A DNA stretch of 64,000 nucleotides from Alphaproteobacteria bacterium (GTDB lineage Bacteria > Pseudomonadota > Alphaproteobacteria > Rs-D84). Below, piece by piece: positions 28,878 to 30,896 of this stretch (position 1 is the first letter of the stretch; every line of letters begins with the position of its first letter). The notes beneath the pieces are model-generated. The model had not been told where the DNA came from. It did no database searches and saw only the letters and a list, made by a program, of their open reading frames with translations. The stretch covers positions 140,876 to 204,875 of the forward strand of contig WQXN01000001.1 of assembly GCA_009784815.1 (NCBI GenBank). The letters run 5' to 3'. The position numbers were made by a program, and so were the translations under genes.

Positions 28878-29159
28878 TTACTCTGCGGAGTGTATAGAAT
28901 CTCTGCAATTATCTAAATTATCCTGCAGTTCTGCGGGATTTTTCATGCCATTGACTATGGTATACCCAAAAGGTACGCCTTAACTATCCCCCTTTCTATA
29001 CAATGGCCTATTTCGCCGAGTTAATAAAATTATCTTGATTTTTAAGACGTTTTGTGGTATGCTTACAAGCAAGTAAATAGTGGCAATTTATCTGCCACAA
29101 TCTATTTAACCCCGTTTTTTGTGGGGCTTTTTTTTATCCAATTTTTTTGAGGAGAGAAT

Positions 29160-30011
29160 ATGAAACAAAACAACAACTTTTTTGTTGAGCAGTCTCGCAA
29201 TTCTGAAATAAAGACGCAGATTGTTTTGACAATGTTCAGTTTATGGCTGAAAAATAATAAAACCAAAAAAGATTTATCATATATTGATTTGTTTTCTGGG
29301 CCCGGACTTTACGACGATGGAACATTATCGACACCAGTATGTATTTTGCAGGAAATATGTGCGACCAAGGCCATGGCGCAAAAATTTAATGTAGTTCTAA
29401 ATGACCATAAGGCAGGAATCATCGCAAAGCTTCGACGTGCGATTGCGAATATCAGGAATGCTAAATTTCTAAAAACTTTGGCAACTTCGGTTGCCAATAC
29501 CGGGGAAAAACCGCAAGTGCTAAATAGCGAGCATTGTTTTATGTTTCTTGATCCTTGGGGCTGGAAAGGCATGCATAGAAATTACATCAATACGGCATTG
29601 CAAAATAAAAATTGCGAAATGGCACTAATGTTCAGTTTTAACCAATTTAATCGATTTATGAATTTTGATAAAATTAAAGGGATTTTTGACGATTTATTTG
29701 ACGCTAAAACATTAAAAGAAATAAGAGATTTTTGTGCAAATAATCCAAAAGCCAATAAAGAGAATTTCGTGTTGAATAAATTTATTAAAATGATTACTAG
29801 CACTTGCGACAATTGTCATTGCCTGCCGTTCAAGTTCAAAATGGAAAATTCATTAAAGACAAGCCATTATGTGATTTTCATAATCCGCGATAAAAAGAGA
29901 TTCAAGGTTGCACAGGCAAAACTGGAGCAATTCGCCAATTATGCGGACGATGTTTTATGTTATTCTCCAAAACATGCTGATAAAAATATGTTGCTGGAAT
30001 TATCAAAATAA
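29160..30011 (+). CDS. TcmP-like (three-Cys-motif partner) protein, short form
   Basis: YIDLFSGPGLY...STP and MFLDPWGWKG, collinear with the motifs of the ORF at 14020. GAGGAG RBS. Confidence 0.55.
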   Translation: MKQNNNFFVEQSRNSEIKTQIVLTMFSLWLKNNKTKKDLSYIDLFSGPGLYDDGTLSTPVCILQEICATKAMAQKFNVVLNDHKAGIIAKLRRAIANIRNAKFLKTLATSVANTGEKPQVLNSEHCFMFLDPWGWKGMHRNYINTALQNKNCEMALMFSFNQFNRFMNFDKIKGIFDDLFDAKTLKEIRDFCANNPKANKENFVLNKFIKMITSTCDNCHCLPFKFKMENSLKTSHYVIFIIRDKKRFKVAQAKLEQFANYADDVLCYSPKHADKNMLLELSK

Positions 30012-30029
30012 AATTGATAGGATCGTGTC

Positions 30030-30770
30030 ATGGCTATGAATTCTAATCTTGAATGGACTGATGCGACATGGAATCCGCTCGTCGGATGTTCAAAATACAG
30101 TGACGGGTGCAAAAATTGTTATGCCATGCCAATTGCGGAACGTCTGCGCGAACAAGGTATAGCCGGGTATGAAAATGGATTCAAATTAACTTTGCGACCA
30201 GAGCGGTTGGAAATGCCCTTGCATTGGAAAAAGTCGCGCCTGGTGTTCGTAGATTCCATGTGCGACCTATTTCATGACGATGTGCCCTTGGAATATATAC
30301 AGAAAGTTTTTGCAATTATGAAACGTGCCGATTGGCATATATATACAATATTAACCAAACGCTCGCGTCGTATGCGTGAGCTGTCTAAGCACTTGGAATG
30401 GTTGCCGCATATTGTTGCAGGCATAACGATTGAAAGCGACAAATATATTGACCGACTTGACGACCTGAAAGCCGTGCCCGCACAAATGCGATATCTGTCG
30501 TTAGAGCCATTGCTATCGTCGATTCCGCGGCTGGATTTAACCGACATAGATTGGGTTATAGTTGGCGGTGAATCCGGTTCGAACGCACGACCTATGGATG
30601 CGGATTGGGCGCGCAAAATCCGCGATTGGACATTGTCGCAAGGCAAGGCATTTTGGTTCAAACAATATAGCGGGCATGGTTGTTATGGCGCAATGCCACC
30701 ACCGGTTTTAGATGGAAATGAATACAAGCAATTTCCAGAATTCAAGCGCGGCGATTTAAGCTTATTTTAG
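30030..30770 (+). CDS. DUF5131 / phage Gp37-Gp68 family three-Cys protein
   Basis: N terminus [26 protein letters not shown] (C-x6-C-x2-C) and later WVIVGGESG are characteristic as I recall the family. Confidence 0.7.
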   Translation: [246 protein letters not shown]

Positions 30771-30876
30771 GCAAAAGAGTTACAAGTTCATACCATGTGT
30801 GCCAGACTATAAATTTCTTGCCTTATGAATTGAAGTATGGCAAAATTAGCAAAAGAATACTGGCTCACCAAAAATC

Positions 30877-30896
30877 AAACGCCCCGAAGGGCGTTT
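30877..30896. terminator. bidirectional terminator hairpin
   Basis: aaacgccc-cgaa-gggcgttt with flanking A and T runs, between convergent genes. Confidence 0.6.

Follow-up and report, generated by a model that had tools for sequence, protein, structure and literature searches.

A TcmP/DUF5131 gene pair beside a tRNA-Ala gene in an alphaproteobacterial genome: a putative two-component system for nucleic-acid modification

Genes for TcmP and DUF5131 proteins have already been linked in the sequence databases. The name of the TcmP profile TIGR04474, "three-Cys-motif partner", denotes the partnership with DUF5131 (Pfam PF07505), and PADLOC lists the pair as the candidates PDC-M30 and PDC-M41, whose A components (PDC-M30A and PDC-M41A) are both TcmP-like, as judged from a scan of 68 TcmP-superfamily proteins. 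The PDC set consists of 145 candidate systems without activity tests, picked as being embedded in BREX, DISARM or type I restriction-modification loci (10.1101/2024.01.29.577857); in S. meliloti, a TcmP gene is co-induced with the adjacent defence gene Hna (PMC12445080). Here we analyse a pair of this kind found directly 3' of a tRNA-Ala(GGC) gene in 64,000 nucleotides (hereafter the window) of an alphaproteobacterium of GTDB lineage Rs-D84 (assembly GCA_009784815.1, contig WQXN01000001.1, positions 140,876 to 204,875 of the forward strand). Both window genes match PDC-M30, A and B respectively, and the pair is a further member of a catalogued, biochemically uncharacterised family, not a fresh discovery.

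Two groups of characterised enzymes serve as points of reference for the individual proteins. For TcmP the closest is RlmJ, in which a lysine of the motif X helix (K18) and the aspartate of the DPPY motif (D164) constitute the catalytic centre, mutation of either residue abolishing activity, and in which the active site resembles that of DNA methyltransferases forming N6-methyladenine (m6A), such as T4Dam and M.TaqI (PMC3814359). For DUF5131 it is the radical S-adenosylmethionine (SAM) superfamily, where RadicalSAM.org assigns the family to Megacluster 5-2, the neighbouring 5-3 being that of spore photoproduct lyase (PMC9477430).

The tRNA-Ala(GGC) gene (28802-28877, forward strand; found by ARAGORN and, at 64 bits, by Rfam RF00005) is followed on the same strand by a 283-residue TcmP open reading frame (ORF-A, 29160-30011), with the motifs YIDLFSGPGLY and FLDPWG, and by a 246-residue DUF5131 ORF (ORF-B, 30030-30770) with an N-terminal three-Cys motif. 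The two ORFs are separated by 18 nt (30012-30029) that contain an AGGA ribosome-binding site. A preliminary description, made from the letters of the sequence and a list of ORFs, had pictured a tRNA-adjacent islet of two genes 18 nt apart ending in a bidirectional terminator at 30877-30896, and every element of that picture is present where it was placed; the proposed TcmP-like and DUF5131 assignments, for which it had asked for profile searches, are likewise upheld, with scores of 86.7 bits against TIGR04474 (cut-off 53) and 273.7 bits against PF07505 (cut-off 28.9). We put at roughly 0.55 the probability that these genes form a two-gene operon whose products assemble into a complex that modifies a nucleotide of nucleic acid, and that is used in conflicts between phages, mobile elements and their hosts.

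The pairing is the foundation of this reading. It was surveyed in 80 DUF5131 loci sampled from GTDB species genomes, including those of Acidobacteriota, Planctomycetota, Chloroflexota, Nitrospirota, Bacteroidota, Actinomycetota and Methanoregula. A gene from one BLAST-linked family flanks DUF5131 in 59 of the 80, and when the profile is used as well a TcmP-superfamily gene is found in 66. All eight distinct alphaproteobacterial contexts have DUF5131 directly after TcmP. Among viral contigs of IMG/VR, DUF5131 lies immediately downstream of TcmP in 16 of 19 loci and a PF04055 radical-SAM gene takes that place in the other three, and no TcmP among the loci examined lacked a radical-SAM gene. Such adjacency is far beyond chance, and the pair is conserved as neighbours, as the preliminary description had required. 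The window pair has the adjacency, co-orientation, TcmP-then-DUF5131 order and mobile context of the family at large. Clustering of all ORFs from 79 chromosomal loci revealed no third conserved gene, which agrees with the earlier idea of a compact, self-contained cassette. In one locus, L090 from a Candidatus Latescibacterota metagenome-assembled genome (MAG), the two proteins are fused in a single ORF of 634 residues (1161-3062), with DUF5131 at residues 75-318 (E 3e-107) and the TcmP domain at residues 338-629 (E 6e-73); a natural fusion of this kind is classic evidence that DUF5131 and TcmP act together.

ORF-A is matched by TIGR04474 over residues 26-251 and by PDC-M30A at 56.8 bits. Its close homologues, 46-81% identical, are encoded in MAGs of Rickettsiales-like and further Alphaproteobacteria, within a superfamily of about 4,750 clusters at 50% identity (E <=1e-3). 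An AlphaFold (AF2) model of the protein, with a predicted local distance difference test (pLDDT) score of 82.6 and a predicted template-modelling (TM) score of 0.85, was compared with the PDB by Foldseek and found class I SAM-dependent methyltransferases, led by RlmJ (7p9i, E 7e-6), with the best TM-score, 0.48, going to Trm1 (3axs) and the DUF519 protein 2oo3 also near the top. In sequence searches of the PDB the single TcmP sequence gave noise only and a 21-sequence profile gave nothing; with a profile of 68 superfamily sequences, the best six matches are all RlmJ/DUF519 chains (best E 1.5e-4, 24 bits). In the resulting alignment, YiDlFAGpGry of TcmP stands against YLDTHAGAGRY of RlmJ (motif I), GSPlia against GSPLIA and flDPfG against LIDPPYE (motif IV), and D131-P132 of TcmP falls on D164-P165 of RlmJ.

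The residues conserved within the superfamily point in the same direction. K18 and D131 are the sole invariant residues in the 68 diverse sequences, with D43, G47, G49 and P132 conserved in at least 90% of them, and K18 lies on the N-terminal helix of the model (helix 1, residues 12-33). The TcmP pair K18/D131 appears to parallel the catalytic K18/D164 of RlmJ, the lysine being matched by its helix-1 position and spacing, without an explicit alignment. TcmP shares with RlmJ (the 23S rRNA m6A2030 enzyme; PF04378/DUF519) and Trm1 the class I fold, an N-terminal "motif X" helix, a motif I of the form Y-[IL]-D-x-x-x-G-x-G-x-Y, the GSP(L)IA segment and a D-P motif IV. It differs from RlmJ in sequence (identity about 8-10%), in lacking the inserted helical subdomain and the residues Y4/H6, in a motif IV that reads D-P-[WF]-G rather than DPPY, and in being mobile and partnered by a radical-SAM protein, whereas RlmJ is a housekeeping enzyme. 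Motif IV of Trm1, the tRNA m2,2G26 enzyme, reads D-P-F-G, like that of TcmP. The best reading of the profile and model comparisons together is that TcmP is an amino-methyltransferase-type protein, enzyme or subunit, which resembles RlmJ without being a member of PF04378.

ORF-B, the DUF5131 protein, matches PF07505 over profile positions 1-220 of 243 and scores 299.6 bits against PDC-M30B and 307.2 bits against PDC-M41B; a further match is to PHROG 2045, which has no assigned function. At least 7,900 homologues were found. Its cysteine triad, C20-x6-C27-x2-C30, is invariant at all three positions in a 48-sequence alignment (50-87% identity), as are many further residues, and all conserved motif residues of both families are retained in the window's TcmP and DUF5131. 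For the AF2 model of DUF5131 (pLDDT 90.2), Foldseek ranks spore photoproduct lyase first in the PDB, as the sole match below 1e-3 (TM 0.55, E 9e-4), followed by lipoyl synthase and then generic TIM barrels; sequence and profile searches of the PDB gave noise or nothing, and the score against TIGR04471 is 54.8 (cut-off 355). A profile comparison by hhalign with a PF04055-positive protein encoded elsewhere in the window (15243-16019, discussed below) gave a probability of 90.5% over 164 columns, and the cysteine triads align column by column, that of DUF5131 against GCS---HGCKYPCYA of the window paralogue. DUF5131 has in common with proteins of the spore photoproduct lyase/COG1533 type (PA0069, Rv2578c and the "radical SAM mobile pair" A and B) a partial TIM-barrel radical-SAM fold, an N-terminal cysteine triad followed by Y-A, and, with the lyase itself, the RadicalSAM.org megacluster. 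Model and sequence point to DUF5131 as a radical-SAM enzyme akin to spore photoproduct lyase, one that would bind an iron-sulphur cluster and cleave SAM.

The resemblance to spore photoproduct lyase could also be taken to mean DNA repair, with DUF5131 as a lyase that reverses a base lesion (a photoproduct, or an alkyl or methylene crosslink) and TcmP as the subunit that recognises and flips the lesion. That the lyase is the best and only significant structural relative, within a common radical-SAM megacluster, that DUF5131 is extremely conserved (50-87% identity across phyla), and that solo copies lie among phage replication and recombination genes would all suit such a role. Against it, a patchy, mobile distribution tied to prophage ends misfits housekeeping repair, a putative methyltransferase catalytic dyad is preserved in TcmP, two divergent paralogous systems occur in one small region of this genome, and the organism of the window is not a spore former, so that we think repair decidedly unlikely.

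Returning to a nucleotide-modifying complex, the mechanism that we propose divides the work between the subunits. TcmP and DUF5131 would act as one complex that covalently modifies a nucleotide within nucleic acid. TcmP would be the SAM-binding, base-flipping subunit, of the type of RlmJ, Trm1 and the DNA-m6A methyltransferases, using motif I (D-x-F-x-G-x-G), motif IV (D-P-[WF]-G) and the catalytic-type lysine of helix 1, and it would either methylate an exocyclic amine or hold the flipped base. DUF5131 would bind a [4Fe-4S] cluster through its CX6CX2C motif and split SAM to give a 5'-deoxyadenosyl radical, which would abstract hydrogen on the same nucleotide. A more specific version, that TcmP pairs, whether with DUF5131 or with a canonical radical-SAM protein, install a novel radical-SAM-dependent hypermodification of purines in DNA, is one that we entertain tentatively; by one possible route the RlmJ-like subunit would add an N-methyl group, which radical chemistry would then elaborate. 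DNA is somewhat more likely than RNA as substrate: most TcmPs have a C-terminal winged helix-turn-helix (below), active sites of the RlmJ type belong to the DNA-m6A kind, and DNA is what spore photoproduct lyase acts on.

A good many observations weigh against this reading and should be set beside it. With regard to TcmP, ORF-A has no Pfam match, the RlmJ family PF04378 included; the TM-scores of its model to methyltransferases are only 0.42-0.48; and when the TcmP profile is compared by hhalign with a single RlmJ sequence, only motif I is aligned, at a probability of 2.5%, so that catalytic competence is not assured. With regard to DUF5131, the only Pfam match of ORF-B at E <=0.01 is PF07505, none being obtained to PF04055; the triad is CX6CX2C, not the canonical CX3CX2C that spore photoproduct lyase has; the protein is shorter than the lyase (246 vs 340 residues); and a Foldseek E of about 1e-3 is of modest significance, the likeness being one at the level of the fold. 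Nor did literature searches turn up any functional study of DUF5131, TcmP or PDC-M30/M41, or a later test of M30/M41. The preliminary description had said that neither family has an established biochemical role, and as to functional papers that stands; the placement of DUF5131 in the radical-SAM superfamily and of TcmP in the methyltransferase fold goes beyond it.

The partnership, moreover, is not obligatory for DUF5131, since the protein is found alone in several settings. TcmP-superfamily genes are missing from 14 of the 80 DUF5131 loci. Lytic mycobacteriophages carry solo DUF5131 genes in their replication modules, in the early replication region (L116, 3501-4529, and L117, 3501-5614); the proteins are longer, with insertions (325-342 residues), and the records label them "methyltransferase" or "RNA methyltransferase". 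In prophiGD08-3, a PAPS-reductase-like gene comes after this solo DUF5131. In L013 (6574-8741; also in L014 and L015) an intact DUF5131, 86% identical to that of the window, is preceded by the last ~16 codons only of TcmP. The 430-residue ORF that precedes DUF5131 in L013 was considered as an alternative partner and set aside: it neither resembles TcmP nor matches any Pfam or PADLOC model, and the 16-codon remnant shows that it has replaced TcmP.

As to the substrate, the closest solved relatives of TcmP, RlmJ and Trm1, act on RNA, and the window protein is of a form for which binding to DNA is less evident. A typical TcmP has about 370 residues and a C-terminal GMT-like winged helix-turn-helix (wHTH, PF22560); the window TcmP belongs to a short subfamily of about 285 residues, restricted here to Rickettsiales-like alphaproteobacterial MAGs, and in alignment it ends ahead of the wHTH of the longer homologues. 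These facts, along with the one phage record that calls DUF5131 an "RNA methyltransferase", would be accommodated if the pair hypermodified a nucleotide of host or phage tRNA or rRNA, in the manner of those steps of tRNA pathways that combine radical-SAM and methyltransferase enzymes. Yet the active site of RlmJ is itself of the DNA-m6A type (PMC3814359), most TcmPs do have the wHTH, the structural relative of DUF5131 acts on DNA, and core RNA-modification enzymes are not usual cargo of prophages; RNA modification seems to us unlikely.

The setting of the pair was also examined in phages and prophages. DUF5131 was found in 176 isolate phage genomes, in line with the earlier remark that it is frequent in phages. 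The neighbours of the pair on viral contigs are integrases, CI-like repressors, antirepressors, DNA methylases and SNF2 helicases, and in prophages the pair lies beside integrase, repressor and toxin-antitoxin genes. Gordonia phage Jablanski has a DUF5131 gene (gp42) and a convergent TcmP-superfamily gene (gp43, E 9e-41) between the integrase and toxin-antitoxin genes on one side and the immunity repressor on the other; phage annotators had independently labelled the Gordonia phage gp43 "methyltransferase". A typical long TcmP gave no match in isolate phage genomes by tblastn, the Gordonia phage partner being recognised by the superfamily hidden Markov model only. In two alphaproteobacterial MAGs (L001, 1-9300, and L004, 4600-12700) the pair lies inside clusters of phage-like structural and replication genes, which may be prophage remnants or elements resembling gene-transfer agents. 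The phage-like genes of these two loci include Phage_capsid_2, a tube protein, a T7-type tail gene, a T7 scaffold, a terminase fragment and DnaB, and in L004 the pair sits between the scaffold and capsid genes. In the viral locus L107 (3906-6504), and in L113, which is the same element, an insert of about 1.1 kb interrupts TcmP, leaving two ORFs; the insert, which has an ORF of its own on the opposite strand (4539-5792), may be a mobile insertion or an intron-like element.

The mobility of the pair, its prophage location, the embedding of its PADLOC relatives and the co-induction of TcmP with Hna in S. meliloti lead us to a role in conflict, in which nucleic acid would probably be marked or altered, as defence or as self-protection. 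A stricter version would have the pair work as a restriction-modification-like or abortive defence, DUF5131 damaging unmarked invading DNA by radical chemistry and TcmP marking and so protecting the DNA of its own cell, or acting as the sensor. The candidates of PADLOC, with members embedded in BREX, DISARM or type I restriction-modification loci, the Hna gene that a co-induced TcmP adjoins (PMC12445080), the position of the prophage pair in the lysogeny and immunity region, and the patchy, mobile distribution, with two paralogous systems less than 20 kb apart in the window, can all be cited for it. The dependency runs the wrong way round, however: the presumed toxic DUF5131 is often solo while the presumed protective TcmP was in no case seen without a radical-SAM gene, and the strict model is disfavoured on that account. 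The nearest chromosomal neighbours also fail to support it, and count against a conflict role more generally, in that they show no enrichment for defence: 144 Pfam families were found in 134 proteins, none of them in more than three loci. We consider the stricter version doubtful. The layout that the preliminary description had likened to that of defence cassettes thus holds for prophages, with their integrase, repressor and toxin-antitoxin neighbours, and does not hold for the heterogeneous chromosomal ones.

The window contains a second system of this type. At 14020-16019, a TcmP of 407 residues (TIGR04474, 111 bits) overlaps by 1 nt the gene (15243-16019) for a canonical radical-SAM protein of 258 residues, which matches PF04055 at 58.1 bits, has the Cys motif GCSHGCKYPCYA, and gives weak matches to DUF5131, "mobile pair B", PA0069 and Rv2578c. 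The two proteins have their homologues in the tRNA-Ala islet, which lies 14 kb away, the two systems being accommodated within 20 kb. This second pair is part of a classical integrated island (9905-16809) of G+C content 0.32-0.39 beside a tRNA-Thr(GGU) gene (9831-16809 taken together), with a gene for a tyrosine integrase (PF00589 and an Arm DNA-binding domain; 10034-11221) and a 38-nt direct repeat of the 5' half of the tRNA at 9867-9904 and 16772-16809 (89% identity) as its attachment (att) sites. A further tRNA-like repeat of 27 nt occurs at 9700-9726.

Comparison with a related MAG (L011) shows how the tRNA-Ala islet has evolved. In L011 the locus again lies between ppiD and the rpsL operon, with the whole block of tRNA promoter, tRNA-Ala(GGC), leader, TcmP, DUF5131 and terminator (6712-9140) inverted relative to the ppiD and rpsL flanks; in the window the shared block runs from about 28750 to 30905 and takes in the tRNA and its promoter. 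The flanking proteins PpiD, TpiA and GrpE are 66-71% identical between the two genomes, with synonymous divergence (dS) of 1.4-3.0, which is saturated. TcmP is 96.5% identical (dS 0.14; ratio of nonsynonymous to synonymous divergence, dN/dS, 0.12) and DUF5131 87% identical (dS 0.97; dN/dS 0.09), and ratios of about 0.1 in both genes indicate purifying selection on the cassette. In a sliding comparison the nucleotide identity is 91-98% over 29100-30200 and 73-83% over the remainder of DUF5131, which indicates that a tract of about 1.1 kb has recently been exchanged. The trailer of L011 contains an extra insert of about 280 nt.

These figures bear on whether the pair is still of use to its host. 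It might be the decaying relic of an old integrative element, its adjacency without current function in this genome; the islet has neither integrase nor att direct repeat, keeping only a 14-nt inverted fragment of the tRNA, the wHTH of TcmP has been lost, and in the close relative L013 TcmP has gone altogether. We find this very improbable, as both ORFs are intact, with dN/dS of 0.09-0.12 and every conserved motif residue in place, the promoter, leader and terminator are conserved, and the tract of about 1.1 kb that is 91-98% identical to that of a distant relative speaks for recent exchange and maintenance. On the preferred reading the islet is a mobile, self-contained operon that has lost any integrase it once possessed.

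Its edges and composition agree only in part with those of islands integrated at tRNA genes. The resemblance lies in the position of the islet, which begins 1 nt past tRNA-Ala, in the deviant composition of TcmP, and in the occurrence of the same cassette beside other tRNA genes: in L007 the pair is directly 3' of tRNA-Ser(CGA), and in L016, from the unrelated Acidobacteriota, tRNA-Ala(GGC) is directly upstream of it. Altogether 4-5 of 79 chromosomal loci abut a tRNA gene, where about 1.3 would be expected on a rough estimate, and the tRNA-adjacent layout that had been called typical is recurrent yet confined to a minority. The islet differs from such islands in having two genes only, with no further ORF of at least 50 residues with a family match between tRNA and terminator, in lacking an integrase, as had been noted before and as an ORF scan confirmed, in lacking any att-type direct repeat of tRNA-Ala within 28700-37200, and in that the tRNA itself is inside the block that is conserved and inverted with respect to L011. 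A short near-tRNA motif, TTGACTATGGTAT, is repeated in L011 and is not repeated in the window.

The G+C content is 0.33-0.40 over 28750-30250 and 0.53-0.55 just upstream, the flanking housekeeping genes having 0.48-0.54 (PpiD 0.54). It is 0.342 for TcmP (0.34 for TcmP plus leader, with 0.36 at third codon positions) and 0.457 for DUF5131, as against a window mean of 0.477. The AT-richness formerly ascribed to the islet as a whole belongs mainly to TcmP and the leader, DUF5131 being close to the mean and deviating weakly.

At the right edge, the bidirectional intrinsic terminator (30869-30904, both strands; stem 30877-30896, inverted repeat I2) is a hairpin AAACGCCC-cgaa-GGGCGTTT flanked by runs of A and of T, one on each side, positive on both strands in a terminator scan, and L011 has a hairpin of other stem sequence in the same position. 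Just beyond it, on the reverse strand, 14 nt of the tRNA-Ala T-arm recur in inverted orientation without a mismatch (30917-30930; inverted repeat I3, 100% complementary to 28849-28862), followed by a GCTCCA acceptor-like remnant. About 0.01 matches of this length would be expected by chance in 2.4 kb, on a rough estimate, and the copy, which neither ARAGORN nor Rfam calls as a tRNA and which is absent in L011, is possibly the scar of a tRNA fragment. A simple att-mediated inversion was considered as its origin and could not be fitted.

Between the islet and the rpsL operon (30960-36000) are genes for a GDSL lipase, an AMP-binding enzyme, a BrnA antitoxin-like protein and an APH-family kinase, together with small ORFs and no integrase. 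The whole segment is taken as a second, lineage-specific insertion because it is absent from the syntenic locus of L011.

Several apparent signals for expression are preserved along with the genes. A promoter-like site of the tRNA gene, TTGCAA-17-TATAGT (28762-28790, forward strand, as are all the signals described here), has 9 of 12 consensus matches, and its TTGCAA...TATAGT elements recur upstream of tRNA-Ala in L011, where they mark the left edge of the shared block. The tRNA is followed by a terminator-like hairpin and T-run found in the terminator scan, ATCCTGCAGTTCTGCGGGAT then TTTTT (28920-28945), which L011 keeps and for which L007 has a counterpart of different stem sequence. A cassette promoter-like site, TTGATT, 17 nt and the extended -10 element TGgTATGCT (29035-29063), was recognised by reading and conservation; it has 8 of 12 matches in the window, under the threshold of the scan, and the call derives from a TTGAtT...TGTGGTATaaT element common to four alphaproteobacterial loci, those of the window, L011, L007 and L009. 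The 5' leader that follows (29080-29137) has two hairpins by terminator scan and folding, of which the second (29110-29126) is G+C-rich and terminator-like, with a U-run, and ends about 12 nt ahead of the ribosome-binding site of TcmP, read as GAGGAG at 29149-29154. Both hairpins are kept in all four loci (window 29035-29137, L011 7000-7110, L007 about 7900-7990 and L009 about 2806-2895), with different stem sequences in L007 and L009. The fold of the leader alone is not significant (z = -0.9), and an Rfam scan of 28700-31100 returned the tRNA and a sub-threshold Trp-leader match only, with no riboswitch or known RNA family. From a comparison of four sequences only, the conserved leader hairpin suggests transcription attenuation of the cassette.

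The window pair is itself an ordinary member of its family, notable mainly for the paralogous system 14 kb away. The family to which it belongs spans bacterial phyla, methanogens, temperate actinophages and cyanophages. What is new here is a mechanistic hypothesis with named residues (K18 and D131 of TcmP; C20, C27 and C30 of DUF5131), the natural fusion, and the second paralogous system; the fusion of L090 can guide the modelling of the complex, and cultured phages such as Jablanski permit genetics. If the product of the pair is a new modification of DNA or RNA, it would bear on the conflict between phages and their hosts, on artefacts in epigenetic sequencing and on the discovery of enzymes. 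Should the tentative proposal of a radical-SAM-dependent purine hypermodification in DNA prove true, the TcmP pairs, borne on prophages and tRNA islands in bacteria and archaea alike, would represent a chemically new class of system for epigenetic self-marking or against phages.

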